The translations under genes were made by a program, and so were the position numbers. 64,000 bases of DNA from an uncultured Planctomycetia bacterium (GTDB taxonomy: Bacteria; Omnitrophota; Gorgyraeia; CAYWPX01), in the NCBI GenBank assembly GCA_964460615.1, contig CAYWPX010000009.1, positions 19,509-83,508 of the forward strand, read 5' to 3'. Every line of letters starts with the position of its first letter. Position 1 is the first letter of the stretch. Positions 6,910 through 48,135 of the stretch are shown piece after piece. Below the pieces are notes generated by a model that did no database searches, was not told the origin of the DNA, and was given only the letters and a program-made list of their open reading frames with translations.

Positions 6910-7278
6910 TTATCCGATAAATTTTTTTATTTTAGCTATCAGGTCTTCTGCTTTAAACGGTTTTATCACACAATCGTCCGCGCACATATTCTTAGATTTT
7001 TCGGAAAGCATAAGACTGGAAATATTTGCAGTAAAAAAAATTATCGGTATGGGTTTAAACTTAACGTTACTCTTTAGTATTTTACAAAGCTCTTCACCTT
7101 GCATCCCCGGAAGCCGCAAATCCAATAATATCAGATCAGGCGGGGTTTTTTCTATCAAAGCCAATCCGTCTTCAGCAGTACCTGCCGATATGACTTTGTA
7201 ACCTAATCTTTCCAATCTTACGGTCACAATGATGCACATGTCCGGTTCATCGTCTATAATAAGAATATTTTTCGCCAT
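6910..7278 (-). CDS. single-domain response regulator (REC only)
   Basis: Start taken at MAKNILIIDDEPD (ATG rc 7276-7278) directly after the HK stop. DD...D(LILLD)...T...KPF receiver motifs. The longer ORF-track version overlaps the kinase. Confidence 0.8.
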   Translation of the reverse strand: MAKNILIIDDEPDMCIIVTVRLERLGYKVISAGTAEDGLALIEKTPPDLILLDLRLPGMQGEELCKILKSNVKFKPIPIIFFTANISSLMLSEKSKNMCADDCVIKPFKAEDLIAKIKKFIG

Positions 7279-7279
7279 T

Positions 7280-8725
7280 TTAAGTCCCACTTTTTTTAAT
7301 AGGTAAAGTAAAACTAAAACATGCGCCCTTTTCAAACTCGGATTCAGCCCAGATTTTGCCCTTATGCTTTTCAATGATATCCTTGCAAATAGCAAGCCCC
7401 AGACCAGTACCTCCGGACCTCTTATTGAGCTGAATAAATCTATCAAAAAGCTTAGGCATATCCTCTTTCTTTATCCCGAGACCGGTATCTTTGACGCTAA
7501 CCTTGATAAAACCATTATATAGCGATGTGCTGACTTCTATACTTCCGGATTCGGTAAATTTAAGCGAATTGTCTATCAGATTAACAAGAACCTGGGCGAC
7601 TTTGTCATGGTCAAATACTATCTTAGGCAAATTTTTATCGAGTTTAATCACAAAATCCAAATTTTTTTTCTTCACAAGCGATCCCATCATTTCATATATT
7701 TCACTGATAACATCATTTATATCGTTAATTTTCATCCTGAATTCCATTCTTCCTGACTCAAGCTTCTGAAAATCCAGAACTGCATTTACAAGCCTGGCAA
7801 GCCTGTCCATATTTCTATTGGCCAGACTAAGTAAATTCTTCTGCTCCTCATTTATCTCCCCGGTAACTTCATCAAAAACAATATCAATACCTGCCCTAAT
7901 AGCGGTCAGAGGTGTACGAAGTTCGTGAGAAACCATATCAATAAAATCGGCTTTTATCTTAATTGCCTTCTGCAATTCTTCATTTACCTTAGCCAGGTGT
8001 TCCTGATAACTTTTTAATTTCGCTTCTGTCTTTTTACGTTCTTCGATCTCTATCTGCAATTTCCTTAACGCTACTGCCATATCAGCCCGGGTGGCTTCGT
8101 CGCTTGAAAGAAGATTGTTGATCTCGTTTTCTATCGAACGCTTTGAAGGTTTTATGACAAATTCATCATAAGCATTCCCTTTTGAAACAAATTTCGTCTG
8201 AACTGCCCAGCAATTTGTTTTGAATAATAATGAGAAGTACCCTGCCATTTTCCCGGCCAGCATTCCGCTTCCCCATGAGACCCCTAATGCTTTTTGAAAT
8301 TCTCCCTCCCAGGAGTTCCTTATAGAGACAACTGCTGTTTTCTTTATTTTATCAAGTTTTTTAAGTTTCCAAGCGCCCCATCCGGCAACAGCGGCAATAT
8401 TAGCAATGGCTTTAAAGCCTTCCCTAAAATCCTTGTATTGTGAAATTACCTCCCAGTCATCCTTGCAGCTTGCTCGCCCCTGGCTCTGTTGGGCCAGGAA
8501 AAATCTCTTAGTCCCTACCATGGACTGAACTCCTGACATCAGGCCGGCAAGCGAAGAACCTATCCACATCATAATAACCGGTAGATCTTCAAAAGTCGTT
8601 GTGCCCTCTTTAACATTCCACCTAATATTAACATCTGAAACAATAGCCTTATTAATGCCGGTATTTTTGACTTTATATTTATCCAGACTTGGTTTTATAA
8701 TTTTAGAATATTTATTTGCTGCCAT
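7280..8725 (-). CDS. sensor histidine kinase (HisKA + HATPase_c) with ~220-aa N-terminal domain of unknown family, no obvious TM helices
   Basis: H-box SHELRTPLTAI; N, G1 (DTGLGI) and G2 (GGTGLGL) boxes; coiled-coil linker. Confidence 0.85.
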   Translation of the reverse strand: MAANKYSKIIKPSLDKYKVKNTGINKAIVSDVNIRWNVKEGTTTFEDLPVIMMWIGSSLAGLMSGVQSMVGTKRFFLAQQSQGRASCKDDWEVISQYKDFREGFKAIANIAAVAGWGAWKLKKLDKIKKTAVVSIRNSWEGEFQKALGVSWGSGMLAGKMAGYFSLLFKTNCWAVQTKFVSKGNAYDEFVIKPSKRSIENEINNLLSSDEATRADMAVALRKLQIEIEERKKTEAKLKSYQEHLAKVNEELQKAIKIKADFIDMVSHELRTPLTAIRAGIDIVFDEVTGEINEEQKNLLSLANRNMDRLARLVNAVLDFQKLESGRMEFRMKINDINDVISEIYEMMGSLVKKKNLDFVIKLDKNLPKIVFDHDKVAQVLVNLIDNSLKFTESGSIEVSTSLYNGFIKVSVKDTGLGIKKEDMPKLFDRFIQLNKRSGGTGLGLAICKDIIEKHKGKIWAESEFEKGACFSFTLPIKKSGT

Positions 8726-12162: not shown

Positions 12163-13626
12163 TCAACCCTTTATAACTCCTATTGGTCGCATCTTGCAGA
12201 CTCTTTTTGCGAGACCCGCCTCATGGACTACATTAACAACATCATTTACATCTTTATATGCTTCAGGCGCTTCTTCTAGTAATGTTTCTCTGCCTGTAGA
12301 TTTGACTATTATACCTTTATTTTCCAATTCGCGCGAGAGATTTCTTCCTTTTAGACTTCTGATCGCAGCACCCCTCGAAAGCATCCGTCCGGCACCATGA
12401 CAAGTAGAACCAAAGGTTTCATCTTCAGCCTTTTTTGTTCCGACTAATAAATACGAATTTCTACCCATATCTCCCGGTATTATAACCGGTTGGCCTATGG
12501 TTTTGTATTTAAGGGGAATATCAGGATGATTTGGCCCAAAGGACCTCGTCGCACCTTTTCTATGAACACATAATAATTTTTCTTTACCATTTATATTATA
12601 TTTTTCTAATTTAGCAATATTATGAGCAACATCATAAATAAGGTCCATACCAAGATCTCTGGAAGATTTTTTGAAAACTTTTTCAAATACATTTCGCGCT
12701 ATATGCATAAGGCACTGCCTATTGGCCCAGGCATAATTAGCTGCGCATCTCATAGCTCCCAGATATTTCTTTCCTTCCGGTGAATTCACCGGAACTGAGG
12801 CAAGCTGCCTATCGGGAACTTGAATATTGTACTTAGATAGTAAATGGATCATATCTTTAGCATATTCATCGCATATCTGATACCCCAACCCCCTTGAGCC
12901 TGAGTGGATCATTAGAACAACACTTCCGACTTCAATACCAAACACCTTGGCTGCAATTTTATCGAAAATTTCATCAACTACCTGCACTTCCATAAAATGG
13001 TTTCCCGAACCAAGAGTCCCTGACTGGTTCTTTCCTCTTTCGTAGGCTCTATCTGAAACTGCGGACGGATCCGCCCCTTCAATAAATCCGCCCGATTCGG
13101 TATATTCTATATCTTCTTTCCTTCCATAGCCTTTTTTCTCTATAACCCACCTTGAACCCTTTAAAAGAAGCTCCCTTTCTTCGAGCGCAGAGATCCTTAC
13201 ATCTCCTTTAGATCCAACGCCTGCAGGTACGTCGTTAAAAAGCGCATACACCAGATCCTTTAGAACCGGCCTGATATCATCTTCAAACAAATTTGTCCTA
13301 ACTAACCTTACCCCACAATTTATATCATAGCCCACTCCGCCGGGCGAAACTACTCCGCCGTTTTCTATATCTGTTGCAGCGACGCCTCCTATAGGAAAAC
13401 CATACCCCCAATGAATATCAGGCATAGCCAAAGAAGCGTTTACTATTCCGGGCAAAGTGGCTACATTTGCAACCTGCTCCATAGCCTTATCTTTAAAGAT
13501 ATCCTTGAGCATTCCTTCACTTGAATAGATAATACCCGGTACCCGCATGCCTTCTTTATAAGATTTTGGTATACGCCATCTGTAGTCGTCAATCTTTTCT
13601 ATGGGTATGTTTATTGTATCTGGCAT
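12163..13626 (-). CDS. rtcB: RNA-splicing ligase RtcB (3'-phosphate/5'-OH RNA ligase)
   Basis: 487 aa. GGVGYDINCGVR, HSGSRGLG, HNIA and CVHRKGATR motifs. Confidence 0.95.
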   Translation of the reverse strand: MPDTINIPIEKIDDYRWRIPKSYKEGMRVPGIIYSSEGMLKDIFKDKAMEQVANVATLPGIVNASLAMPDIHWGYGFPIGGVAATDIENGGVVSPGGVGYDINCGVRLVRTNLFEDDIRPVLKDLVYALFNDVPAGVGSKGDVRISALEERELLLKGSRWVIEKKGYGRKEDIEYTESGGFIEGADPSAVSDRAYERGKNQSGTLGSGNHFMEVQVVDEIFDKIAAKVFGIEVGSVVLMIHSGSRGLGYQICDEYAKDMIHLLSKYNIQVPDRQLASVPVNSPEGKKYLGAMRCAANYAWANRQCLMHIARNVFEKVFKKSSRDLGMDLIYDVAHNIAKLEKYNINGKEKLLCVHRKGATRSFGPNHPDIPLKYKTIGQPVIIPGDMGRNSYLLVGTKKAEDETFGSTCHGAGRMLSRGAAIRSLKGRNLSRELENKGIIVKSTGRETLLEEAPEAYKDVNDVVNVVHEAGLAKRVCKMRPIGVIKG

Positions 13627-13727
13627 TTTTAAATTCCTTTAGCTATAAGGCAATTAGATAATTGAGTGATTGGTTTAATTTTTTACCTAATCGCATTATA
13701 ACCTAATCACTATTTTTTATATACGAG

Positions 13728-14144
13728 CTACACATCAAAAATAATCTCTGCGCTATACATATCACCGGCCTTTGTTATCTTAAAATCGTGATATGTCACG
13801 CCCTTGACTTCGGCTTTAAGCACATGCCTTCTCTTATCAAAATCGTCACCAACAATTTCGGCAACGATCTCGCAATCAGCCAGTTTTTTTATTTTAATTT
13901 TTTTAATAAGAAATTCTCTGGAGGTATAAAAATAAAGGAGCTCGCTTAAAAAATTTATAAGCAGCTCCTCCAAGTTCGGGGCCTTGATAGAAACTTCTTT
14001 TTTCAAGGCCCCTTTAATTTTTTTTGTATCACTAAGAACATCAAATAAAGCTAAAGCCGAATTAGTAAAAAGCGTTTTAAGGGTTTTCCCATGCGCTCTT
14101 ACGCCTATGTCTGCAGTATGATCAAAATACTCAAAGCGCTTCAT
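13728..14144 (-). CDS. archease (RtcB activator)
   Basis: 138 aa. Signature FEYFDHTADIGVRAHG at the N-terminus; located immediately upstream of rtcB. Confidence 0.85.
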   Translation of the reverse strand: MKRFEYFDHTADIGVRAHGKTLKTLFTNSALALFDVLSDTKKIKGALKKEVSIKAPNLEELLINFLSELLYFYTSREFLIKKIKIKKLADCEIVAEIVGDDFDKRRHVLKAEVKGVTYHDFKITKAGDMYSAEIIFDV

Positions 14145-14155
14145 GAAAATTATTA

Positions 14156-15220
14156 CTAATCCTTTTTGACAATTGACTTAACCGCTTCCATTATCTCTAT
14201 GGGAACTGCAATTACGACTGTGTTTGAAGCTGTGGGCCCAAGGCCGTCAATCGTCTGCAACGTCCTAAGCTGCATAGCTCCCGGGGATTTTAGCATTGTC
14301 TCTGCCGCTGCAGCCAGATTTAAAGCTGCCAATTTATCACCTTCCGCTTTTGTAATTGTGGCGCGCTTTTCTCTTTCGGCGGAGGCCTGCCTTGACATCA
14401 TTTTCTTCAATTCTTCGGGCATATCTATATCCTGGATCTTTATTGTAGTTACCTCCAGGCCCCAGTTTTTGCTCTCTTTTTCCACAATACTCTCTATCTC
14501 TTTACCTATCTGCTCACGTTCGGTAAGAAGCTGATCCAACGACATCCCTCCGACAACGTCCCTTAAAGCAGCGAGAGCGTACTGGCTCATAGCATAAGAA
14601 TAATTTTGCACCTCTATAATAGCATCTTCTACTTTTATTACCTTGAAATATACAACTCCGTTAATAGAAACAGGTACATTATCTTTTGTAATAACCTGCT
14701 GTTTTGGTATATCAAGCGTGAGAACCCTTGTATCAACCATTGCCACATTGTCAACGACCGGAATAATGAAAAATAAACCAGGGCCTTTAATTCCTAAGAA
14801 TTTCCCCAATCTCAATACTATCCCTCTTTCCCACTGCGCAGCTATTCTTACAGCCGAAGAGGCCAAAATAGCCAGTAAAAAAGTTATAACAAAAAATAAA
14901 CCTCCTGTAAAATTATTCACCTGAAAAACCCCGAAGCTGAATATCCCTCCAAGTATCATTACAACAAAAAATATTAGTGTCGGTATACCGCTGAACATGA
15001 ACTCCTCCTTTTTTAATTGAACCTTATTTTTGATTTCATCCAATGAAACGGTTTTCAATAGATCCTGAAAACTACTGTTATCATTTAGGGAATTTTTTAA
15101 ATAATTTCTTATTGATTCATCACTTTCAGAAGCTTGTCGATTCTGGGATTTTGTTTTGGCGCTACTAACCGCTGAAATTATAAATATTACGACTATCAAT
15201 ACAAATATTAGGTCAAACAT
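14156..15220 (-). CDS. SPFH/band-7 (stomatin/HflC-like) membrane protein
   Basis: 354 aa. N-terminal TM segments, then an SPFH core (...YFKVIKVEDAIIEVQNYSYAMSQYALAALRDVVG...) and a coiled-coil tail. Confidence 0.8.
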   Translation of the reverse strand: MFDLIFVLIVVIFIISAVSSAKTKSQNRQASESDESIRNYLKNSLNDNSSFQDLLKTVSLDEIKNKVQLKKEEFMFSGIPTLIFFVVMILGGIFSFGVFQVNNFTGGLFFVITFLLAILASSAVRIAAQWERGIVLRLGKFLGIKGPGLFFIIPVVDNVAMVDTRVLTLDIPKQQVITKDNVPVSINGVVYFKVIKVEDAIIEVQNYSYAMSQYALAALRDVVGGMSLDQLLTEREQIGKEIESIVEKESKNWGLEVTTIKIQDIDMPEELKKMMSRQASAEREKRATITKAEGDKLAALNLAAAAETMLKSPGAMQLRTLQTIDGLGPTASNTVVIAVPIEIMEAVKSIVKKD

Positions 15221-15244: not shown

Positions 15245-16567
15245 TTATTTAGCCAATTTCGCTTCATCAAGCTCAGACATAAGGTACTTAACCTTTGCCA
15301 CTAAAATATAATAATCCTTGGTAAATTTAAGCAGATTGAACTGAGATCTCATATAGTTAAAATTTGAATCAATAATATCGCTCTGATCAACATCGCCTCT
15401 TTGATAAAGTGTAAATGACATATTAAGCGCCTCGTCTGCATCGCTAAACACAGAGCGCTGGCTTGATAATAATTTCTTTGTCTTCTCCAGATTTGCCGTG
15501 GCTTCTTCAAGGTCAAGTCGGATCTCATCCTTTATAAATCTTTCTACGGTCTCTAAGCGCGAATATTCGGACCTTAGCTGTGAAATTTGGGATGAATTAT
15601 CAAACCCGTCAAACAACGGAAGCTTAAAGTTGAGCACCAAAGACCAGTTATACTCATATGACCCGCCTAGATTAAATTTATTTGAGCTTTCGTAAAATGT
15701 GCTTTTCAAGCTTGCTTGGGGAGCATAACGCGAATACGCGGCATTAAGGGCCTGCTTACCGATCTTACTGGAGAGCTCCGCGACTTTTACGGTTAAATTG
15801 GTATTATAAACTTTATTGGACAGATCTTTTATATCATAATTGGTCATATTCTTCTCTTCGGGACAAACCAACTCCCCGATCACTGAAATTGTTTCGGGGC
15901 CGGGGATCATAAGTAATTTTTTTAATCTAGTTTCAAGGGTCTTTTTCTCCTTTTCAAAATTCAGAGAATCGGATTCAAGATTTTCGACCTCGATCTTTGA
16001 TCTCAGGATCTCGTATTTATGTACCTCCCCGGTCTTACTCATCCCCATAAGGTTGGAAGAGTAGCCTTCCATCCTGTTAATTGCCCTGGCGTTTAATTCC
16101 TCGAGTTTTTCATTCAAAAGAAGCTCATAATAAGTATTGATTATATCGTATATGATCTTGTTGCGCTTCTCATAATAAGCCTGCAGCTCTTTTTCAAGTG
16201 AGAGTCGGGCTTTTAAATAGTTGTAATAACTTTCTCCGCCTTTAAAAAGGTCCTGATTGATCTGGATATTCCCAACACTAGGCGCCTGCAAGAATGTCTC
16301 ATCCGCGACTCTCCCGGCCCCCGGAGAATCAGCCGAAATATAATTATAATTAGCATATATTTTCGGTAAAAATGCCGAAAAATTCTGTAATAGGTAGGCC
16401 CTGGCTTTTTTTACGTTTTCTTTGGCGATCTTAAGATCGGTATTTCTCGATAGCCCGGTTTCAATACATGCTTTCAGATTTAAGGGCTCTTTAAACTCCT
16501 CACCGGATACGGAATTAATTTTTAGAACGAATATAAAAACAACAAAAAATAAAAGGATTTTTTTCAT
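15245..16567 (-). CDS. TolC-like outer membrane efflux/channel protein (OEP family)
   Basis: 440 aa. Signal peptide, two tandem OEP-type repeats with coiled-coil and beta signatures. Confidence 0.6.
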   Translation of the reverse strand: MKKILLFFVVFIFVLKINSVSGEEFKEPLNLKACIETGLSRNTDLKIAKENVKKARAYLLQNFSAFLPKIYANYNYISADSPGAGRVADETFLQAPSVGNIQINQDLFKGGESYYNYLKARLSLEKELQAYYEKRNKIIYDIINTYYELLLNEKLEELNARAINRMEGYSSNLMGMSKTGEVHKYEILRSKIEVENLESDSLNFEKEKKTLETRLKKLLMIPGPETISVIGELVCPEEKNMTNYDIKDLSNKVYNTNLTVKVAELSSKIGKQALNAAYSRYAPQASLKSTFYESSNKFNLGGSYEYNWSLVLNFKLPLFDGFDNSSQISQLRSEYSRLETVERFIKDEIRLDLEEATANLEKTKKLLSSQRSVFSDADEALNMSFTLYQRGDVDQSDIIDSNFNYMRSQFNLLKFTKDYYILVAKVKYLMSELDEAKLAK

Positions 16568-16571
16568 ATTT

Positions 16572-17876
16572 TTATCTATACTCCGGCCTGTTGTCCCAAA
16601 CTTTTTTGGGCAAATAATTACTTCTCAAAAATGACATTCTAAAAAATTCAAGAAGATACGCAAACATACTGACCGCCCTCAAAAATAAGCTGTAGAAAAA
16701 AAAGATCGGGGAATATAATACAAACACCCAGTCCCTGCCCGGATCATCCGAAAGAAGAGCCACAATAGTAAATTGGATAAAATTCATAATAGTATAATAC
16801 AACAGCGTTACTATAACTATAAAAGGAAAAATCTGGGGAAAAAATATTGCTATCAAAATAAAATACAAAGGAAAAATGAATAAAAGCACAAGATTAAAAA
16901 AAAGATCCAAAACGCCTGCGATAAAATCACCTATTTTAAACGAATGAAAATCAAGAAGATTTCTGTGTTTTCTTAAATTTATACTCACATAACATCTGTC
17001 CCAACGTATCCTCTGCTTGGCCAGTCTAATCCACGTATCAGGGACTTCTGTCAACGCTATGGCCTTGGGCGCAAACGCAACTTTAAACCCGAGCTTTCTT
17101 GTCTTTATTGTTAAATCAAGGTCCTCGCCTGTCTCCGGGTCAGCCCCTTTCAGGTCAGTCATTACTTCGCGCCTATAGCTCGAAAAAGCACCTGAGGCGA
17201 TCTGAAGCAAATCCGTAAAAGCAAGCCATCTTCTCGAAATACTAATACACATGCCGTACTCAGCGGCCTGAAGGCGCGTAACAAGATTCTCTTTGTCATT
17301 ATACACCTTCAAATTGCCGCTTACTACACCAACCCTCTTATCTCTAAACGGCTTCACGGCTTCGGATATCGCATTACGATGTACCAGAGTATCGCCGTCA
17401 AAACCCATGATAATTTCTCCTTTAGAGAAATTTAAACCATAATTTATAGCTGAGGGCTTTCCCCCTCTTTCGGTTTTACGGAAAAATTTTATCAATCCCT
17501 TAGACTCAAAATTTCTGCAAATTTCGGGAGTATTATCTTCGGATTTATCATCAACAACAATTATTTCAAAGTTCGGGTAGTCATTCTCTAAAAAAGAATT
17601 TATGGTATTCTTTAGCCTTATACCTTCATTGTAAACGGGCAAAATAACACTCACAAAAGGCTTGTATTCTAACGAGCTCTCTTCATCCTTCTTTTCGCTT
17701 CCGAAAATCTCCAAAAAAAGAATTATTGAATTTCCGATATAATAACGCGTGGTATCAAATAATAGCGCCGGTCCAAAAAGAAAGACTATCTCGAATGGAG
17801 AGCGCGACATAACATTATCTATAGAAAATGCTATGTATTCACCGACCAAATTTATAAAATCAAAAATTATATGCAT
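16572..17876 (-). CDS. processive family-2 glycosyltransferase (PgaC/cellulose/hyaluronan-synthase-like), membrane-embedded
   Basis: 434 aa. VILPVYNEG, VVDDKSED, DGDT and the processive-synthase QRIRW motif. One N-terminal and ~4 C-terminal TM helices. Confidence 0.85.
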   Translation of the reverse strand: MHIIFDFINLVGEYIAFSIDNVMSRSPFEIVFLFGPALLFDTTRYYIGNSIILFLEIFGSEKKDEESSLEYKPFVSVILPVYNEGIRLKNTINSFLENDYPNFEIIVVDDKSEDNTPEICRNFESKGLIKFFRKTERGGKPSAINYGLNFSKGEIIMGFDGDTLVHRNAISEAVKPFRDKRVGVVSGNLKVYNDKENLVTRLQAAEYGMCISISRRWLAFTDLLQIASGAFSSYRREVMTDLKGADPETGEDLDLTIKTRKLGFKVAFAPKAIALTEVPDTWIRLAKQRIRWDRCYVSINLRKHRNLLDFHSFKIGDFIAGVLDLFFNLVLLFIFPLYFILIAIFFPQIFPFIVIVTLLYYTIMNFIQFTIVALLSDDPGRDWVFVLYSPIFFFYSLFLRAVSMFAYLLEFFRMSFLRSNYLPKKVWDNRPEYR

Positions 17877-18595
17877 TATTTAAATATTTTACAGTGGACC
17901 GACATGCCAAACTTAAAATATTTATTAAAATCATCTGATGCATCAAGCGGGAATATCCTGACTTTAAAAACTTTCTCCGGTAAATAATAGTACCTTGAAA
18001 ACATTTTGGGCATTTGATCTATCTCGGCATAAACAAACTCTATCTTACCCTTAATTTTTTTGTCTTTAATGCTCGACCAGACCTCGGCCTCCTGCCCCAC
18101 TCTCACGTTATTGATAAAGCGAGCAGGAACAAATGCATCTATCCAATACCGTTTGGGTTTTGTAACACTATAAATCACATCTCCTTTGTTAACTATATCC
18201 CCAACGGATTTATTTTTTTTGACTATCACCATTTCATAGCTTGCCCTTATGTCTTTGGATAATCCTCCGGCTTCGTCAGAAGCTTTGATGAGAGCAATCG
18301 TACTCCCCTCTTCAACCCTTGCGCCTGTTTCAGCATAAAGCTGGCTTATCTTTCCGTCTATAGGGGAAGTAATGCTAGATAGATCCATATTCTCCATTTC
18401 TAGCTGCATTGGACCCATTACTACACCATTAACAAATAAAGTATCCAATGTCAAAAACCTCCAAACAACAAATGGTGTAGCTAAAAATATTATAAAGAAT
18501 ACAAACTTGACTATTTTCGGCAGACCCTTCTTAGGGCTTTGACGTTCGGCTTGAGCCTTATTTACAGTAAACGCCTCTATCTTTCTTAGTCTCAT
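17876..18595 (-). CDS. HlyD-like periplasmic adaptor / membrane-fusion protein (short form)
   Basis: 239 aa. N-terminal TM anchor, biotin-lipoyl-like SPIDGKISQLYAETGARVEEG and a beta-barrel domain. 1-nt overlap with the GT2 gene. Confidence 0.55.
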   Translation of the reverse strand: MRLRKIEAFTVNKAQAERQSPKKGLPKIVKFVFFIIFLATPFVVWRFLTLDTLFVNGVVMGPMQLEMENMDLSSITSPIDGKISQLYAETGARVEEGSTIALIKASDEAGGLSKDIRASYEMVIVKKNKSVGDIVNKGDVIYSVTKPKRYWIDAFVPARFINNVRVGQEAEVWSSIKDKKIKGKIEFVYAEIDQMPKMFSRYYYLPEKVFKVRIFPLDASDDFNKYFKFGMSVHCKIFK

Positions 18596-20049
18596 ATAGT
18601 TTTCCCTGACATATTAATTAGTTTATTTAATAGCTCTTCATCAGTTCTGCCATCCTCAGGGTAAGAAACTGACGATACTTTAACGTTAATATGCTCCCTA
18701 CTGGTATACTCATTAAGCTTTTTATTTATAAAACGTTCCAGCTCCAGGGCCTTAGATTTATCGGCCTCCGGAAGAAGAGTAATTAAAGCGCTCTTGTCGT
18801 AACGGGCGTGTATGTTTATTTTCCAGAGATTCTCCTTTAGAAGGGTCGCTATGTCATTAAGCATCCTCCTGGCTCCACTAAAACCGGCCTTTTTGGTCAA
18901 TTCATCAAAATTGAGGACATTCACCATAACAATGGAAAAATGCTCTTTGAATTTTTCAGCACGGTCTAACTCCTCATCAAGTCTTTTCTTAAAATACCGG
19001 TTACTATATACCTCAACATCAGTATCAAGCAGTATCTGGTCCATGTTCAAATCTATAAATCTCCCCGACTCTACAACACCAGCCGCATCTTCGGTAATAG
19101 GATATTTAAATATATCCTGCCTCATAGCATTATCGATCTCAAATATTTTTTTGCAATTCCTGCATTGAGCGCTTACATCCGGTTCGGTGAACTTTTCTCC
19201 GTTATCATTACATACGAAACTTTGCCCCGGCTTATCATAATCCACCCCTATCTGCTTTAATTCATGCTCGCATTTTGGGCAGATGTACTGCGTCCCCTTT
19301 TTAAATTCTTCTTCAATGCCGGTATAGCCGCACCTGAAATGGTGGATCATTTCAACTATTGATATATTTGCGCTATGGGTAGTCGGACACGTCTCTCTGA
19401 TATTTATATCGTGATGCATGCAATATGGGCATAGAAGGACCCTGTCAAAAAATCTTTTTTCAAAACACCCTTTATTAACCAAAAATTCGATATGATCTAT
19501 TTCGCTTCCGTCATTGACTTTAAAAAAATTTGCGGCAATTGGATAGCCATAACCGCTCAGGGAATTCATATTATATTCCGGGATCAATTCCTTAATGTTA
19601 TTATCCAGCATACTTTTCAGGAAATCCACTCTCAACTTGTCTTCTTTGGATATGACCGGAGGTTGAGTGGTTTTTTTAGCCCTCCTCAAAACAACTTCTA
19701 TCCTGGCTATAAGCTCCTGGGCATCATAGGGTTTGGTTATGTAATCATCTATACCGAATTTAAAAAATTTTACCTTATCTTCCATACCGGATCTCGCGGT
19801 AAGGGCAATGGCAGGAATAGCTGATTTTTTGGCATCGGCATGCAACTTCTGAAGGACTTCAAATCCATCCATCCCGGGCATCATAATATCAAGGAGTATC
19901 AAATCCGGAGTATTGGTATCCGTATAGAGCAGAGCTTCTTTGCCGCTTAAAACACTATGAACATTGAACCCCGCGTTTTCCAATCTCATAGTTAAAAGCC
20001 GGCTAACATCCGGTTCATCATCTACAATAAGAATATTCCCTTTTGCCAT
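18592..20049 (-). CDS. response regulator: REC + Cys-rich (zinc-ribbon-like) middle domain + degenerate GGDEF domain
   Basis: 485 aa. REC motifs (VDDE, LILLDIMMPGMDG, ALTA, KPY). CPYC..C..C..CPKC..C..CRNC cluster. C-terminal GGDEF fold with RYDKSAL replacing RYGGDEF and no RxxD I-site. Confidence 0.75.
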   Translation of the reverse strand: MAKGNILIVDDEPDVSRLLTMRLENAGFNVHSVLSGKEALLYTDTNTPDLILLDIMMPGMDGFEVLQKLHADAKKSAIPAIALTARSGMEDKVKFFKFGIDDYITKPYDAQELIARIEVVLRRAKKTTQPPVISKEDKLRVDFLKSMLDNNIKELIPEYNMNSLSGYGYPIAANFFKVNDGSEIDHIEFLVNKGCFEKRFFDRVLLCPYCMHHDINIRETCPTTHSANISIVEMIHHFRCGYTGIEEEFKKGTQYICPKCEHELKQIGVDYDKPGQSFVCNDNGEKFTEPDVSAQCRNCKKIFEIDNAMRQDIFKYPITEDAAGVVESGRFIDLNMDQILLDTDVEVYSNRYFKKRLDEELDRAEKFKEHFSIVMVNVLNFDELTKKAGFSGARRMLNDIATLLKENLWKINIHARYDKSALITLLPEADKSKALELERFINKKLNEYTSREHINVKVSSVSYPEDGRTDEELLNKLINMSGKTI

Positions 20050-20070: not shown

Positions 20071-21456
20071 CTATTGTTTTATATTTAATTCTTCCGGATG
20101 GTTTGTATAATATTTTTTCATTTTAATCAAAATATCATCCATTGAAGTGGAAGGTATAAAATTTAAAATTCTTTCAAGCTTCCTCAGATCAGGAATGCGC
20201 TTTCTTATATCCTCAAAATTGGTCCCATAATATTTTTCGTAATCTTCAAATTTTATTTGCGAAGAACTTCCGGTAATATTTATTATACGCTGGGCAAGGT
20301 CACTTATGGTTATATTATTATTACTTCCGAGATTTATCAGCTGACCGTTTGCATCTTTGGAATTAGCAAGTCTTATGATTATCTCTACGGCGTCTTCAAC
20401 ATATGTAAAACACCTGGACTGTTTCCCGTCCCCGTAAATAACAAGCGGTTTATTATTAAAGGCGTTATAAAAGAATCTCGGTATAACCATTCCAAAATTC
20501 CCGACCTGACCCGGGCCTACTATATTAAAAAGCCTTACCACAACAACCGGGAGATTCCTTTCCTTATGATACGCTATCGTGAGAAATTCATCAAGTAATT
20601 TTGAACAAGCATAGCTCCACCTGTTAACATCAGGGGGCCCGATAACGACATCATTATCCTCTCTAAAAGGAAGCTGGTCGGATTTGCCGTAGACTTCGGA
20701 GGTTGAGGTGAGAAAAACCTTGATATGTTTTTGTGAAGCATATTTCAGGACTAACTCAGTCCCGTAAGTATCATTTATTATGGTATCAAGAGGCCTGTCG
20801 ACAACATTTTTAACTCCTACCGTAGCCGCTAAGTGATATATCATATCGACTTTATCTATCAGTTTACTTATAAGCGCTTCATCAGTAACAGATCCTCTCG
20901 TTAAATTAAAATTTTTTAAACCTGCCATATCCTCAATATTTTTTTCTCTGCCCGTAGAAAAATCATCTAATACATAGACGTTATATTTCATTTTTACAAG
21001 CACCCTTGCCAAATGCGAGCCTATAAAACCGGCCCCACCGGTAACAAGAATATTATTAATGGTATTTTTGGCGGCATCCTTTGACCTTCGTAAGACTGCA
21101 TTAACTCTGCTTATGAATTCCTCTGCCTCAAATGGCTTTGTTATATAATCATCCGCTCCCAGATCAAGGCATTTAACCATGTTTGACGACGATTGATCCG
21201 CCGTAAGCATTATAACCGGGATAAAAGCGGTTTTTCTATCAGAGCGGATCTTTGCCAATAGAGTATACCCGTCCATATCAGGCATCTCGATATCCATAAT
21301 GATAATATCGGGGATCTCTTTTTTTAAATATTCCAGGGCATCAATCCCGCTTGCGACTGCGGAAGCAATAAAGCCGGATTTATTTAAGCGCGGCAGAAGC
21401 ACCTTGCCGACTTCCCTTTCATCATCGATTATTAATACTTTTGGTACTGGCGACAT
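20071..21456 (-). CDS. REC domain fused to NAD-dependent sugar-nucleotide epimerase/dehydratase (extended SDR, UDP-glucuronate decarboxylase/UXS-like)
   Basis: 461 aa. N-terminal REC (IDDE, IIIMDIEMPDMDG, MLTA, KPF), then VTGGAGFIGSH Rossmann, catalytic SxS...YACSK (YxxxK). Confidence 0.85.
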   Translation of the reverse strand: MSPVPKVLIIDDEREVGKVLLPRLNKSGFIASAVASGIDALEYLKKEIPDIIIMDIEMPDMDGYTLLAKIRSDRKTAFIPVIMLTADQSSSNMVKCLDLGADDYITKPFEAEEFISRVNAVLRRSKDAAKNTINNILVTGGAGFIGSHLARVLVKMKYNVYVLDDFSTGREKNIEDMAGLKNFNLTRGSVTDEALISKLIDKVDMIYHLAATVGVKNVVDRPLDTIINDTYGTELVLKYASQKHIKVFLTSTSEVYGKSDQLPFREDNDVVIGPPDVNRWSYACSKLLDEFLTIAYHKERNLPVVVVRLFNIVGPGQVGNFGMVIPRFFYNAFNNKPLVIYGDGKQSRCFTYVEDAVEIIIRLANSKDANGQLINLGSNNNITISDLAQRIINITGSSSQIKFEDYEKYYGTNFEDIRKRIPDLRKLERILNFIPSTSMDDILIKMKKYYTNHPEELNIKQ

Positions 21457-21461
21457 ACGTC

Positions 21462-22802
21462 CTATCTCCTATTCTTTCTATCCAGGATGATCCTTCTGAT
21501 TTCAGCCCTGATCTTATCCGGATCGTGACGGACTACTTCTGTTTCATTTGCTATATCGGCTATAACAATACGAGCTTTAGTAATTTTTTTGATTTCGTTG
21601 ATATCATTAATAAAGACGGGGAATTGATTTTTTTTGGAATATTTTTTTACTGAACTCTTGGATAATTTATTTGTATCGTTTATTAATATATAATCCAAGC
21701 TATCCGATTTAAGATATTTTATAATTTCGCTGATATGATTAGCCGCATCAAACCCGTAAGTTTCACCCGGTTTTGTCATAAGATTGCATATATACACCTT
21801 AACTGCGGGCGAATCTATTATAGCATCTCTTATGGCTTTAACTAATAAATTTGTTATAATACTGGTAAACAGATCTCCCGGGCCGATTGTAACCATATCA
21901 GAATTAATGATCGACGAACAAGCGCCTGTATCGGCTTTCGAAGGAGGCTCGTGCCAGCAATCGATGATCTTCAGGGATTTGTCCCGCCCAACCCCAAGAT
22001 CAATATTGCTTTCGCCTTTAATAACTTTACCATTTTCAAATTTTGCACATAAGGTAGGATTTGTTATTGTGGCAGGATTTACTATCCCTTTAATATTAAG
22101 TATGTCGCCCATGGCCCTGACCGCTTCAGGCATCGAGCCGGTAATATCGGATAAGGCAGTGATAAGCAAATTACCTAAGCTATGACCGCTAAGGCCCGGG
22201 GCCTTTTTAAATCTGTACTGCATTACTTTATCCATTAGATCCGGAGTGGTGGATAGAGCGACCAGATTCCTTCTTATGTCTCCCGCCGGGATCCCGCCAA
22301 AAGCCGCCTTAAGCCTTCCCGACGAACCGCCATCATCACTGGTGCTTACTATGGAGGTCAAAAATACATCATCGAGTTCCTTTAACCCCATTAAGAGATT
22401 AAATAATCCCGTCCCTCCCCCAATAGATGAGACCCTGTACTTTTTTTCAAATACTGCTTTGACTTTTAATAGGATCTCCCTGTGGTTAAAAGGCTTGGAC
22501 AAAAAGTCCTTGGAGCCGTATTTTTGAAAATCAAAGACATCCTCCAGGCTTTCGGAGAGAGAAGAAATAAAAAAAGGGATTTTAGAAACTTCAACAATAT
22601 TAAGGTTTTTTTGGAATAATACAGGATTGCTTTTGTAGGAATCTTTATCAAATACTATAATGTCCGGCGAGAAATCGATCAATGCAGATTTCAAAGTTTC
22701 GAAATCAAATACTCTTTTAACCTCTAAAACAAGTTTTGATAGAAAAGGCTTGATATCTTCTACAAACTTATCGTTTCCAATCAATAAAAATCTTTTATTC
22801 AT
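21462..22802 (-). CDS. REC-like receiver domain fused to YvcK/CofD-like (UPF0052) domain
   Basis: 446 aa. N-terminal ~125 aa with receiver pattern (LIGND, IIVFDKD, FFISS, SKPF), then IGGGTGLFNLL, DDGGSSGRL and PAGDIRRNLVALS motifs of the YvcK family. Confidence 0.75.
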   Translation of the reverse strand: MNKRFLLIGNDKFVEDIKPFLSKLVLEVKRVFDFETLKSALIDFSPDIIVFDKDSYKSNPVLFQKNLNIVEVSKIPFFISSLSESLEDVFDFQKYGSKDFLSKPFNHREILLKVKAVFEKKYRVSSIGGGTGLFNLLMGLKELDDVFLTSIVSTSDDGGSSGRLKAAFGGIPAGDIRRNLVALSTTPDLMDKVMQYRFKKAPGLSGHSLGNLLITALSDITGSMPEAVRAMGDILNIKGIVNPATITNPTLCAKFENGKVIKGESNIDLGVGRDKSLKIIDCWHEPPSKADTGACSSIINSDMVTIGPGDLFTSIITNLLVKAIRDAIIDSPAVKVYICNLMTKPGETYGFDAANHISEIIKYLKSDSLDYILINDTNKLSKSSVKKYSKKNQFPVFINDINEIKKITKARIVIADIANETEVVRHDPDKIRAEIRRIILDRKNRR

Positions 22803-22900: not shown

Positions 22901-23079
22901 ACAATTATATCATAGGGCATTGATATTTCAATATAAATATAAATGGCCAATAATGACACAAGCTGTAGCTATTTCAATGCATTCAAATGACCCATTTCGG
23001 TCTAAAAACAAAAAAATATGGCAAAGATGCATAGAAGCAAACAAATACTTTTCTTCCAAAATCTTTGCCATTAAAGCTC

Positions 23080-23190
23080 TTATTTTTTACAGACACATTC
23101 ACTCGCTTTCTTTTTGCATCCGCTGCAAACCCCTTTTTCGATTGGCTTGCCACAATTCTTACACGGTGTACACCCGCAAACTTCGCACAT
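23080..23190 (-). CDS. small Cys-rich peptide (36 aa, 11 Cys), metallothionein-like or precursor-peptide-like
   Basis: MCEVCGCTPCKNCGKPIEKGVCSGCKKKASECVCKK. GGGGGTGA Shine-Dalgarno 6 nt upstream. TATAAT-like -10 ~70 nt upstream. Not in the ORF track (<60 aa). Confidence 0.4.
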   Translation of the reverse strand: MCEVCGCTPCKNCGKPIEKGVCSGCKKKASECVCKK

Positions 23191-23411
23191 GTTAATCACC
23201 CCCGCTCTAAGATCTTTCTATATGGAATTGCCAAAAAAATGTTAAAAATTAATATTAATTATACAGCATATTAAAAAAAAGAAAATTGGCAGATTCTATT
23301 ACTATTTGACTTTTTTCTACCTATAGATAATTTAGAATGTTTTGCATATGCTCTTAATAGGGGTAAGCACATATTCTTAAGATATTGTAAAATTCCATAA
23401 TTTTAGAATCC

Positions 23412-23965
23412 AAAATTAAGAAATTTTAGCAACAATCGCATGGACAAAAAATAAACCTCTTATTTTTTTAAGAGGTTTTAATTGAATTTTGCCCCTCGTT
23501 TTGCCTAAATTGCTTCTTCTCGACGCAATTTACGGCAACTCGGGATTGGTGAGCCGCCCGTGACTCTCCCGACGCAATCCTTTGGATAGGTCGGGATTCC
23601 GACTTACCTGTTTTATGGGTAACGTCGGAAGAACACGGCGTATCTACCAATGAATAAAATTGAAAGACTGAGAGGGTATATGTCCATGCGCTTAAAATAG
23701 TACTAAAATTCCTTAATTTTCAAGAACACAAAATTAAGAAATTTTAGTATTAATCGCATGGACAAAAAATAAACCTCTTATTTTTTTAAGAGGTTTTAAT
23801 TGAATTTTGCCCCTCGTTTTGCCTAAATTGCTTCTTCTCGACGCAATTTACGGCAACTCGGGATTGGTGAGCCGCCCGTGACTCTCCCGACGCAATCCTT
23901 TGGATAGGTCGGGATTCCGACTTACCTGTTTTATGGGTAACGTCGGAAGAACACGGTGTATTTGG
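23412..23965. repeat. Two ~232-bp direct repeats (23412-23643 and 23731-23960, period ~319 bp). Each contains a bidirectional terminator hairpin and the 3'-terminal 20 nt of tRNA-Lys(TTT).
   Basis: Near-identical blocks. tggtgagccgcccgtgactc at 23548-23566 and 23865-23884 equals the tRNA 3' end at 24143-24162. ORFs 23468-23650 and 23786-24001 lie inside the repeats and are likely spurious. Confidence 0.85.
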
Positions 23966-24103
23966 TATTAACGGTATCGGGATTGGGGGGCTATTACGCA
24001 CATGCTCTTAAAGAGAAATGCCGATATTCTTAAGATATTGTAAAAATTCCTTAATTTTAATTACAAAATTAAGGAATTTTTACAATAAGAATATGGACCA
24101 AAA

Positions 24104-24142
24104 TAAAAAATCATTCTTAATTTTAAGAATGATTTTTTATTT
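24104..24142. terminator. bidirectional rho-independent terminator abutting the tRNA-Lys(TTT) 3' end
   Basis: aaaaaatcattcttaa-tttt-aagaatgatttttt: perfect 11-bp stem flanked by A- and T-tracts. Confidence 0.7.
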
Positions 24143-24218
24143 TGGTGAGCCGCCCGTGACTCGAACACGGCACAACCACATTAAAAGTGTGGTGCTCTAC
24201 CTGATGAGCTAGCGGCCC
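24143..24218 (-). tRNA. tRNA-Lys (anticodon TTT), encoded CCA
   Basis: rc reads GGGCCGCTAGCTCATCAGGTAGAGCACCACACTTTTAATGTGGTTGTGCCGTGTTCGAGTCACGGGCGGCTCACCA. Anticodon loop CTTTTAA. Confidence 0.85.
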
Positions 24219-24566
24219 ACGTTAAACTTAAATCTAAATTTCAATACTAGGCAATCTGACTGATGTCGCTTTGTTGATGTCCCAAAAAACTTAAGTTTTT
24301 TGGGATGAATTAGCTCTTGATCCTTAAAAACTCGTTTTTCTGCCTGCTGCCTTAGGGCAGTCAGGCAGTAATCATGATCTAATTCTACGGCCCACGTTAA
24401 ACTTAAATCTAAATTTCAATACTAGGCAATCTGACTGATGTCGCTTTGTTGATGTCCCAAAAAACTTAAGTTTTTTGGGATGAATTAGCTCTTGATCCTT
24501 AAAAACTCGTTTTTCTGCCTGCTGCCTTAGGGCAGTCAGGCAGTAATCATGATCTAATTCTACGGC
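24216..24566. repeat. Tandem 175-bp repeat x2 (+ partial third) between frr and tRNA-Lys(TTT). Each unit carries a perfect 24-bp palindrome cccaaaaaacttaagttttttggg and an imperfect GC hairpin ctgcctgctgcc-ttag-ggcagtcaggcag.
   Basis: Units 24216-24390 and 24391-24565 are near-identical; the unit boundary includes the first nt of the tRNA 5' end (cggccc). Confidence 0.85.
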
Positions 24567-47670: not shown

Positions 47671-48135
47671 TTAAAGCTCTATATCGCCTTCTGTATCCAT
47701 CCCATGGTCAACGCTGATAGGCTTATTGCCGATACTAGATTCGCTTTTAGGCTCCTTTTTCTCCTGTTCATATGCATCCAAAACCTTCTTCTGGATGTAT
47801 TCCCTGCATTCAAGAGTAATAGGATGAGCAATATCTTTATGTTCGGACTGTCTGGCCGATTCATCCTGAGCGGTAATATGAGTCTTTTGCTCAATCACCG
47901 GCAGACTTGCGCCGCACTGGTTGCAGAACTTGCTGCGAACAGTATTTTTATAATTACATTTTGGGCATGGCTCTTTAACTTTCCTTGATGGCATAGCTAC
48001 AAAAAGCCCTTTATTGCCTTCGATAACTTTAATATTCCTTACGACGAAAGCATTATCGATAGTTATCGTCGCATAAGCTTTCAATTTTTTATCTGCACCG
48101 CTTTTTAAAAAAACCCTAACTTCCGTAATTTCCAT
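47671..48135 (-). CDS. spoVG: SpoVG-family protein with inserted C4 zinc-ribbon
   Basis: 154 aa. MEITEVRVF...ATITIDNAFVVRNIKVIEGNKGLFVAMPSRK ... DIAHPIT matches the SpoVG core. ~45 aa with CPKC...CNQC inserted between AMPSRK and DIAHPI. Confidence 0.75.
   Translation of the reverse strand: MEITEVRVFLKSGADKKLKAYATITIDNAFVVRNIKVIEGNKGLFVAMPSRKVKEPCPKCNYKNTVRSKFCNQCGASLPVIEQKTHITAQDESARQSEHKDIAHPITLECREYIQKKVLDAYEQEKKEPKSESSIGNKPISVDHGMDTEGDIEL

Follow-up and report, generated by a model that had tools for sequence, protein, structure and literature searches.

A REC–TackOD1–degenerate GGDEF response regulator encoded beside an exopolysaccharide synthase in Omnitrophota and proposed as its phosphorylation-controlled partner

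Results

Organisation of the locus

The window, a 64,000-nucleotide stretch of an Omnitrophota contig (CAYWPX010000009.1), carries on its minus strand a single open reading frame at 18592–20049 whose product of 485 aa joins a receiver (REC), a TackOD1 domain and a degenerate GGDEF domain. The operon around it is listed below in the direction of transcription, together with the domains of the regulator and a candidate kinase from further along the window.

22904–22931, minus: best sigma-70-like promoter match upstream of the operon (11/12, extended -10; consensus scan only)
21462–22802, minus: first operon gene, degenerate REC fused to a CofD/YvcK-like protein of a UDP-GlcNAc-binding family (CofD 2.2e-80)
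20071–21456, minus: REC fused to an NAD-dependent sugar-nucleotide epimerase/dehydratase (Pfam, NCBIfam), 22 nt upstream of the regulator
18592–20049, minus: REC–TackOD1–degenerate GGDEF response regulator gene (open reading frame and Pfam domains)
19696–20034, minus: REC domain of the regulator, aa 6–118, phospho-acceptor pocket intact (Pfam)
19435–19647, minus: predicted TackOD1 winged-helix subdomain, aa 135–205
19090–19434, minus: TackOD1 zinc-knuckle module, aa 206–320, including the invariant G-V-D-Y-D-K-P at aa 268–274
18628–19017, minus: degenerate GGDEF domain, aa 345–474 (A-site DKSAL, I-site WKIN)
17876–18595, minus: short HlyD-like membrane-fusion adaptor, 239 aa, one N-terminal TM segment (HlyD_3 3.5e-18, HlyD_D23)
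16572–17876, minus: processive membrane GT2 synthase, 434 aa (Pfam Glycos_transf_2 2.4e-34, Chitin_synth_2)
15245–16567, minus: TolC-like outer-membrane channel (Pfam OEP 2.3e-41; TIGR01844 TolC family below cut-off)
14156–15220, minus: SPFH/Band-7 protein, last gene of the tight cluster (Band_7 2e-40)
6910–8725, minus: candidate cognate histidine kinase (7280–8725; HisKA and HATPase_c) with an adjacent stand-alone REC (6910–7446; Response_reg)

The start of the adaptor gene overlaps the stop of the regulator gene by 4 nt and the GT2 and TolC-like genes follow, in agreement with the initial annotation, which had placed the regulator directly upstream of adaptor, synthase and channel genes. A HlyD-like gene also separates regulator and synthase in Omnitrophota-clade loci (L003, L010–L015). 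The synthase has its best NCBIfam matches, below cut-off, to PgaC/NodC, and the solved structures nearest to it are 6yv7, hyaluronan synthase and BcsA. Its D, DxD, ED and Q-R-I-R-W motifs, read as VVDD, DGD, GEDLD and QRIRW, are conserved in 80 orthologues. Judged by its GT2 synthase, membrane-fusion protein and outer-membrane channel, and by their tight spacing, the locus is a predicted synthase-dependent exopolysaccharide system. The SPFH/Band-7 gene lies 24 nt from the channel gene; no homologue of it was detected near 89 related loci, and its membership in the exporter system is uncertain.

Upstream of the regulator, the CofD/YvcK-like protein scores 304.6 bits against TIGR01826 (cut-off 196) and its fused REC is merely 25% identical to that of the regulator, while the epimerase-fused REC is 47% identical. 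The REC–epimerase fusion is also found upstream in L004 and L005, and an epimerase/dehydratase homologue lies within L010 and L012. By Pfam and NCBIfam none of the three receiver proteins of the operon has a recognised DNA-binding output, and two of them are fused to enzymes. A search of the operon leader with Rfam gave no riboswitch, of the c-di-GMP type in particular. The stand-alone REC at 6910–7446 is 42% identical to the REC of the regulator and the kinase next to it is a candidate for the cognate kinase; kinases adjoin the genes of relatives in L001, L003, L005 and L006.

Domain architecture and receiver

Residues 6–118 match Response_reg (PF00072, E 2.6e-30), residues 136–317 TackOD1 (PF18551, E 4e-47; 160.6 bits against a cut-off of 32, spanning profile positions 6–187 of 188) and residues 345–474 GGDEF (E 6.2e-15; 55.8 bits against a cut-off of 23.8). 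The Cys-rich middle segment, taken initially for an uncharacterised domain, is therefore TackOD1 by Pfam. The three-domain layout is common to 31 full-length homologues with 41–56% identity to the regulator. No transmembrane segment was found in the regulator (maximum KD19 of 0.99), and its match to the PleD family (NCBIfam NF007135, PRK09581), at 141.8 bits, lies below the equivalog cut-off of 474. The receiver pocket is complete, with D10, D11, D54, T84 and K106. By its predicted receiver fold and its acidic pocket, Asp, Thr/Ser and Lys the regulator is of the REC type (PF00072), and its evident signal input would be phosphorylation of this intact receiver.

TackOD1 and its zinc ligands

The 2018 description of TackOD1 presents it as an output domain that binds zinc in archaeal response regulators and whose function "remains obscure", with a full ligand set of 11 Cys in five CXXC and one HXXC for three zinc sites; a REC-wHTH-TackOD1 architecture also exists (PMC5847659). 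The literature searched mentions the domain only in that description and gives no functional role for it. The domain is present in 2,365 clusters at 50% identity. In the AlphaFold model a beta-rich zinc-knuckle module comes after a winged helix. The predicted N-terminal winged helix is of a fold typical of DNA binders, which is a point against a role as a protein partner. Neither sequence-profile search nor Foldseek gave a homologue of the zinc module in the PDB, and the weak, non-significant Foldseek matches include TFIIE and MCM.

Eleven Cys and many His fall within ~110 residues of the regulator. The pattern C207-x2-C210 ... C221 ... C240 followed by C257-x2-C260 ... C280 ... C296-x2-C299 is exactly the CxxC...C...C and CxxC...C...CxxC that the initial annotation had reported. 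The two clusters stand but their grouping changes, in that H237-x2-C240 is itself a knuckle and C221 and C280 are each what is left of a CxxC knuckle, with Thr and Asn at positions 224 and 283. The knuckles that are intact are C207xxC210, H237xxC240, C257xxC260 and C296xxC299, and two zinc sites are predicted from them, short of the five CXXC, one HXXC and three sites of the full set. These eight ligands are kept in 84–87 of 87 relatives (C207, H237, C240, C257 and C260 in all 87, C210 in 86, C296 in 85 and C299 in 84), so that the clusters are conserved in homologues, as had been expected, and in the alignment this conservation is far above chance. The knuckles at C221 and C280 are C-x2-C in 71/87 relatives and are always lost as a pair, which suggests that together they formed a third zinc site, absent in the regulator. 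C221 and C280 are then probably vestiges of a site dropped by the clade of the regulator, in which the lost ligands are replaced by Thr, Asn, Asp or Ser. The strongest conservation outside the Cys is at K259 and G-V-D-Y-D-K-P, both in the zinc module.

The degenerate GGDEF domain

The C-terminal domain aligns to solved cyclases and, as the initial annotation had held, has a GGDEF fold that has lost both its active site and its I-site. In place of GG(D/E)EF the regulator has D418-K-S-A-L and in place of the RxxD I-site (defined as in PMC4125290) W409-K-I-N412, the Mg-binding Asp is N377, and the guanine-binding Asn and Asp are T385 and K386. With the A-site, the Mg/GTP residues and RxxD all lost, the earlier view that this is not a cyclase holds, and the domain is predicted neither to make c-di-GMP nor to bind it at a canonical I-site.

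No aligned relative has an intact A-site. At the I-site, positioned with the canonical 5-residue spacing to the A-site, the Arg of RxxD is present in 58/87 relatives and the Asp in 77/87. Sorted by receiver and I-site, 53 proteins have a pseudo-receiver with RxxD, five a true REC with RxxD and 13, the regulator included, a REC without RxxD; over 79 members Pfam finds TackOD1 in 79, GGDEF in 46 and Response_reg in 16. Since most relatives combine a pseudo-receiver with an intact RxxD they are predicted to be c-di-GMP receptors, and on this distribution the clade of the regulator, which has a true REC, lost its I-site secondarily. A Trp at the position of the I-site Arg is conserved in 14 sequences of this clade, most of which retain the Asp at position 412, so the altered site may still do something.

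Pairing of TackOD1 and GT2 genes across genomes

A GT2 homologue, that is, a match to the protein of 16572–17876 with phmmer E between 1e-52 and 1e-179, lies directly downstream of the TackOD1 gene on the same strand in 77/80 genome loci from ~ten phyla. Of the three exceptions one falls at the end of a contig, giving 77/79 evaluable loci; L046 is a genuine exception, as L059 probably is, with genes for a GH57 enzyme and CysRS in the downstream place of GT2. The pairing is also present in 9/9 loci from protein look-ups. The two genes are mostly separated by -120 to +26 nt, with a 4-nt overlap in many cases, and by ~720 nt where a HlyD-like gene lies between. Even the Chryseobacterium TackOD1 proteins that have no GGDEF keep the GT2 partner, with weak OEP-like and HlyD-like genes alongside. 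The GT2 link thus turns out to be a defining property of the bacterial TackOD1 family, extending across that family the functional tie to the exporter genes that had been proposed for this locus. From this near-constant place in front of a polysaccharide synthase gene it would seem most likely that the regulator switches the synthase on or off.

When 150 top family representatives were ranked by length, the longest of them contained no fusion of regulator and synthase; their extra length is an acidic low-complexity tail or unassigned sequence and not GT2. Conserved adjacency of this kind would also fit a dedicated transcription factor, which is a further point against a partner role. Identity of the Zetaproteobacteria loci with the published stalk (sfz) cluster was considered and rejected, as Sfz1 is BcsB-like.

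A universal link between TackOD1 and GT2 was also rejected, the archaeal-type subfamily being mostly without a neighbouring GT2. This subfamily, which is large and has a Mrr_cat-like fusion, has no GT2 within 6 kb in ~70 loci. Among 80 archaeal-type metagenome loci a GT2 lies downstream only in close relatives of P0121 (L090, L091 and L095), and the remainder adjoin pilin-like, TadC/FlaJ-like (type-IV-pilus-like) and large surface-protein genes. Binding to a synthase is therefore not an intrinsic property of TackOD1.

Discussion

The reading favoured here, at a probability of about one half, is that the regulator is a phosphorylation-controlled, non-catalytic regulatory partner of the exopolysaccharide exporter (GT2, HlyD-like and TolC-like) encoded next to it. 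By analogy its role would resemble that of PssE, YdaK and PelD, rewired from c-di-GMP to His-Asp signalling. The regulator would be a soluble, dedicated cytoplasmic control subunit of the downstream machine. A histidine kinase would phosphorylate D54 and so alter the oligomeric or conformational state of the protein, as in regulators of the PleD/WspR type, and the module of TackOD1 and degenerate GGDEF would then engage the synthase on its cytosolic side, or the complex of synthase and adaptor, such that polymerisation and export are permitted or blocked. Most relatives may be switched by c-di-GMP at the I-site in place of phosphorylation. The upstream REC–epimerase and REC-like–YvcK proteins may adjust the supply of sugar nucleotides in parallel, with the operon controlled at the level of its proteins.

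The main alternative is a DNA-binding response regulator. The winged helix and/or the zinc ribbons of TackOD1 would bind an operator, and phosphorylation, or c-di-GMP in the relatives, would act as the transcriptional switch of the synthase operon, much as c-di-GMP-responsive transcription factors do near exopolysaccharide loci. Zinc ribbons are frequent in nucleic-acid binders, TFIIE and MCM are among the weak Foldseek matches, TackOD1 was defined as an archaeal output domain and occurs as REC-wHTH-TackOD1 (PMC5847659), fusions to the nuclease-like Mrr_cat domain exist and the archaeal subfamily lies near pilus-like genes without being co-transcribed with them. The surface of TackOD1 is, however, acidic. 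The equivalent of the recognition helix is acidic (-3 in the regulator; mean -2.4 and median pI 4.3 over 87 relatives, with 2% above pI 8), as is the zinc module (mean -3.8), and the archaeal subfamily is equally so. The helix is also poorly conserved, the invariant residues being located in the zinc module, and neither the regulator nor the 79 members match a Pfam DNA-binding or HTH family; the regulator thus has neither the conserved basic recognition helix of MarR/PadR-like proteins nor a match to their sequence families. The strict same-strand and often overlapping order in front of one enzyme gene in ~ten phyla is also more like that of a subunit, and control of transcription by direct DNA binding is considered rather unlikely.

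Zinc-thiolate switches occur in other proteins. Together with the density of Cys and His and the altered ligand set of the clade, in which one site is lost, this would accord with the initial suggestion that the protein possibly senses metal or redox state; its zinc sites would then be a thiol switch through which oxidative or metal stress is signalled to the synthase. Against this, the eight retained ligands hardly vary in 87 bacterial and 76 archaeal-type relatives and have the classical CPxC/HxxC knuckle spacing, a pattern that marks structural zinc, the third site is simply gone (Thr/Asn/Asp/Ser) and not remodelled, an obvious input is already present in the REC here or the I-site in relatives, and no conserved redox or metal genes were found near the loci examined. 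Sensing of this kind is considered very improbable; of the initial annotation the observations are confirmed and the interpretation is supported in part. The altered I-site (W-x-x-D/N) might still bind c-di-GMP in a non-canonical way, or another nucleotide, in addition to responding to phosphorylation. The Trp is conserved in the 14 clade sequences and not drifting, the Asp at 412 is mostly retained, and the five relatives with both a true REC and an intact RxxD indicate that dual input exists in the family. In the regulator itself, though, both I-site residues are lost (W409, N412), and no GGDEF I-site is known to work without its Arg. Such a dual-input receptor seems improbable, if less so than a metal or redox sensor.

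The favoured role, that of a non-catalytic partner of the exporter, has precedents. PssE of Listeria monocytogenes (A-site DKDDA; PMC4125290) and YdaK of Bacillus subtilis (PMC5422440) are degenerate-GGDEF I-site c-di-GMP receptors from GT2 exopolysaccharide operons and are required for synthesis. Like the regulator they have an enzymatically dead GGDEF, with an A-site in PssE that resembles DKSAL, and a GT2 synthase in the same operon. They are membrane-anchored, keep RxxD, bind c-di-GMP and have neither receiver nor TackOD1, whereas the regulator is soluble, has lost RxxD and has an intact REC and TackOD1. PelD (Pel polysaccharide) and BcsE (cellulose) also use a degenerate GGDEF fold as the regulatory module of polysaccharide secretion, and BcsE even has a degenerate REC-like domain along with its GGDEF-like one. 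Each of the two binds c-di-GMP by way of RxxD and lacks both TackOD1 and a functional receiver. PleD and WspR are by contrast active cyclases with GG(D/E)EF and RxxD. The regulator lacks both motifs and the Mg/GTP residues and has a 200-aa TackOD1 inserted between REC and GGDEF, in keeping with its low PleD-family score.

The archaeal TackOD1 regulators (Galperin et al. 2018, PF18551) share the domain and its placement after the receiver. They differ in having three zinc sites, with the full ligand set in 76/76 sequences where the regulator keeps two sites, in having D-x-D-Y-R-K-A in place of G-V-D-Y-D-K-P, and in being without GGDEF, often with a Mrr_cat-like tail, and beside type-IV-pilus-like genes and not GT2. 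On the side of the exporter, Alg44-Alg8-AlgE (alginate) and BgsB-BgsA (mixed-linkage glucan) are synthase-dependent systems (PMC5567048). They share with the present locus a processive GT2, a HlyD-like membrane-fusion protein and an exit through the outer membrane, and are controlled post-translationally by a second messenger. The c-di-GMP receptor in these systems is PilZ on the adaptor, as in Alg44, or the C-terminal domain of the synthase. Here, in contrast, the adaptor is a bare 239 aa, the synthase has no extra domain and control would fall to a separate soluble protein of REC, TackOD1 and degenerate GGDEF.

More tentatively, and at somewhat less than even odds, the TackOD1–degenerate GGDEF proteins may form a widespread and previously unrecognised class of dedicated regulatory subunits of one GT2/membrane-fusion/TolC-like exopolysaccharide exporter. 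Most of these would be soluble c-di-GMP I-site receptors, and the Omnitrophota/Cloacimonadota lineage would have swapped to a His-Asp receiver and lost one zinc site. If so, the same synthase checkpoint would be run by two signalling currencies, and TackOD1 would have its first function. The near-obligate pairing with GT2 suggests a concrete and testable function for the bacterial branch of TackOD1 and would define a new type of soluble regulator for synthase-dependent exopolysaccharide secretion. The REC domains fused to sugar-nucleotide enzymes suggest that in little-studied phyla such as Omnitrophota the whole polysaccharide pathway may be controlled at the protein level. The split between pseudo-receivers with RxxD and receivers without an I-site would then be a natural experiment in which a biofilm or matrix checkpoint was rewired from c-di-GMP to two-component signalling.

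The regulator and its operon

The regulator is encoded by a single 485-codon ORF on the minus strand, inside a tightly packed operon. The best match to a promoter precedes the first gene, and the leader contains no Rfam element. The genes, in operon order, are as follows.

21462-22802 (-), degenerate receiver (REC) domain fused to a CofD/YvcK-like protein (UDP-GlcNAc-binding family)
20071-21456 (-), REC fused to an NAD-dependent sugar-nucleotide epimerase/dehydratase
18592-20049 (-), regulator
17876-18595 (-), HlyD-like adaptor, 239 aa, its start overlapping the regulator stop
16572-17876 (-), GT2 synthase, 434 aa, motifs VVDD, DGD, GEDLD and QRIRW
15245-16567 (-), TolC-like channel
14156-15220 (-), SPFH protein

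The two further receiver proteins (20071-21456 and 21462-22802) both carry enzyme-type outputs. The source organism is Gram-negative, with lpx and bamA genes found.

Pfam assigns the regulator a REC domain (aa 6-118, 2.6e-30), a TackOD1 domain (PF18551, aa 136-317, 4e-47, 160.6 bits against a cut-off of 32) and a GGDEF domain (aa 345-474, 6.2e-15). It reaches no NCBIfam equivalog (PleD 141.8, cut-off 474), has no hydrophobic segment and has its nearest relatives in Omnitrophota MAGs. The receiver, which shares 47% identity with that of the neighbouring epimerase fusion and 42% with a stand-alone REC adjoining a histidine kinase (6910-8725), is intact in sequence, and residues D10, D11, D54, T84 and K106 are invariant across 31 full-length homologues. 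On alignment to the solved cyclases 6d9m, DgcR and PleD, the active site (A-site) GG(D/E)EF is replaced by DKSAL and the c-di-GMP-binding I-site RxxD, five residues upstream, by WKIN; the Mg-binding Asp position is N377, and the guanine-binding Asn and Asp positions are T385 and K386. With these residues substituted the GGDEF domain is predicted to be catalytically dead, in line with the initial annotation, which had described a GGDEF fold lacking both sites and unlikely to act as a cyclase.

Beyond the operon promoter, a 36-aa ORF with 11 cysteines (MCEVCGCTPCKNCGKPIEKGVCSGCKKKASECVCKK; 23080-23190, minus strand), preceded by a purine-rich RBS-like stretch and without a significant Pfam match, is followed by a repeat region (23371-24562) containing tRNA-Lys(UUU) (24143-24218, minus strand). 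To one side of the tRNA, 175 nt are duplicated perfectly in tandem (24213-24387 and 24388-24562). To the other, a repeat of 239 nt occurs twice (23405-23643 and 23723-23961), its copies being 318 nt apart and 97% identical; both copies include the 3' end of the tRNA, interrupted in the T-loop region by an insertion of about 60 nt. Integrated elements may have left the region as a scar, or it may represent a family of repeats derived from the tRNA. The genes for archease and RtcB RNA ligase (12163-14144, minus strand), odd operon neighbours for a polysaccharide cluster, trail it on the same strand with gaps of 11-100 nt; archease also lies near an archaeal TackOD1 locus (L090), probably by coincidence. 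Elsewhere, a SpoVG homologue (47671-48135, minus strand) has a zinc-ribbon insertion (aa 57-78) within its SpoVG domain.

Zinc ligands of the TackOD1 domain

Galperin and colleagues defined TackOD1 in archaeal response regulators, where it is the output domain and has 11 conserved cysteines, in five CXXC motifs and one HXXC; its function "remains obscure" (PMC5847659), and no further TackOD1 literature was found in the searchable library. The cysteines of the regulator (C207xxC210, C221, C240, C257xxC260, C280, C296xxC299) lie exactly where the initial annotation had placed them, and its expectation that they are conserved held, with the main ligands present in 84-87 of 87 distinct aligned relatives; the segment itself proved to be a known domain. 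C207, H237, C240, C257 and C260 occur in all 87, C210 in 86, C296 in 85 and C299 in 84, and K259, G268, D270, Y271 and P274 are likewise invariant. Positions 221/224 and 280/283 read C-x2-C in 71/87, the second cysteine of both knuckles being missing jointly from the same 16 sequences, the regulator included. We infer that the two knuckles belonged to a single zinc site, so that the regulator retains two of three predicted sites.

Pairing with the GT2 synthase

Searched in full with HMMER, 1.84 billion cluster representatives yielded 2,365 TackOD1 proteins, of which 937 reached E<=1e-30. With each species represented by a single genome, relatives were found in 520 genomes. The best 80 loci from these span Omnitrophota, Cloacimonadota, KSB1, Calditrichota, Desulfurobacteriaceae, Nitrospirae, Caldisericota, Bacteroidota, Victivallaceae and Alpha-, Gamma- and Zetaproteobacteria; ORFs were called de novo and compared by phmmer with the window proteins. 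A homologue of the GT2 synthase (E 1e-52 to 1e-179, 430-490 aa) lies directly downstream on the same strand in 77/80, bearing out the suggested tie to the synthase. The two genes overlap or are <=26 nt apart in most loci, and about 720 nt apart where, as in the window, an HlyD-like gene lies between them. Among the exceptions L051 is a contig end, L046 is genuine and L059 probably so. Nine loci from protein look-ups have the same pairing, and Chryseobacterium TackOD1 proteins without GGDEF are still paired with GT2, the flanking ORFs being weakly OEP-/HlyD-like.

Large ORFs of 650-690 aa flank the pair in Chryseobacterium (L007/L008, 3932-11352) and Cloacimonadales (L001, 12883-16876). They match OEP or HlyD/TPR in Pfam only weakly, and one further flanking ORF, of 675 aa, has no match; probably all are divergent parts of the same export system. 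Homologous regulators in L004 and L005 also have the REC-epimerase fusion upstream, and L010 and L012 contain an epimerase/dehydratase homologue.

The link is not universal. An archaeal-type subfamily (TackOD1 with an Mrr_cat-like tail), in which all twelve ligands are conserved, was examined at 80 metagenome loci; GT2 is downstream in only three, all close relatives of the family protein P0121. The remainder adjoin pilin-like, TadC/FlaJ-like and large surface-protein genes, which agrees with the literature report on archaeal TackOD1; TackOD1 is therefore a general module employed beside different envelope machines. In L101-L170 the archaeal-type proteins (~327 aa) have a strongly conserved opposite-strand neighbourhood. 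It encodes a protein of ~520 aa, or more in some loci, whose N-terminus carries a TM segment, alongside a pilin-like protein of 139 aa and a pair of membrane proteins resembling TadC/FlaJ. The archaeal-type motif is D-x-D-Y-R-K-A, as against G-V-D-Y-D-K-P.

Signal input across the family

All 79 family members scanned with Pfam have TackOD1; 46 have GGDEF and 16 have Response_reg. The A-site is degenerate in all 87 aligned relatives. At the I-site, in canonical spacing, 58/87 keep the Arg and 77/87 the Asp.

Table. N-terminal domain, I-site and third zinc site in the alignment
Pseudo-receiver or none; RxxD; third Zn site present; 53 proteins
True receiver; RxxD; third Zn site present; 5 proteins
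True receiver; I-site lost; third Zn site lost; 13 proteins, including the regulator
Pseudo-receiver or none; I-site lost; third Zn site present; 13 proteins
Pseudo-receiver or none; I-site lost; third Zn site lost; 3 proteins

Since the majority keep RxxD, most members resemble classical c-di-GMP receptors of the degenerate-GGDEF type. The lineage of the regulator looks rewired to His-Asp phosphorylation; in its class the I-site Arg position is a conserved Trp, and it is improbable that this former I-site retains ligand binding. Some REC-TackOD1-degenerate GGDEF proteins with RxxD intact (P0237 and P0200) have extremely acidic, low-complexity C-terminal tails of 150-390 aa containing repeated W-W-S/T-T-P motifs.

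Proposed role of the regulator

The closest functional precedents are PssE (PMC4125290) and YdaK (PMC5422440), degenerate-GGDEF I-site receptors in GT2 exopolysaccharide operons that are required for synthesis. Because of this analogy and of the conserved, often translationally coupled gene pair, we propose, at a probability of about 0.5, that the regulator would control the synthase-adaptor-channel machine from the cytoplasm as a subunit in which D54 phosphorylation substitutes for c-di-GMP binding.

That it is instead a transcription factor is a serious rival, if an unlikely one: the recognition-helix equivalent of the winged helix is acidic and poorly conserved (mean -2.4, median pI 4.3), the zinc module is also acidic (mean -3.8), and the operon's other receiver proteins have enzyme outputs. 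The metal or redox sensing put forward in the initial annotation, for which the one argument is the presence of cysteines, is highly improbable; no sign of it was seen, the sensor input being the receiver. The observations of that annotation are confirmed and its interpretation is partly supported.

In the proposed role of control subunit, the regulator is a new variant within the degenerate-GGDEF regulators of exopolysaccharide synthases. The family-wide pairing of TackOD1 with a GT2 synthase was previously unreported and, together with the apparent exchange of c-di-GMP for phosphorylation as input, makes the system moderately interesting.
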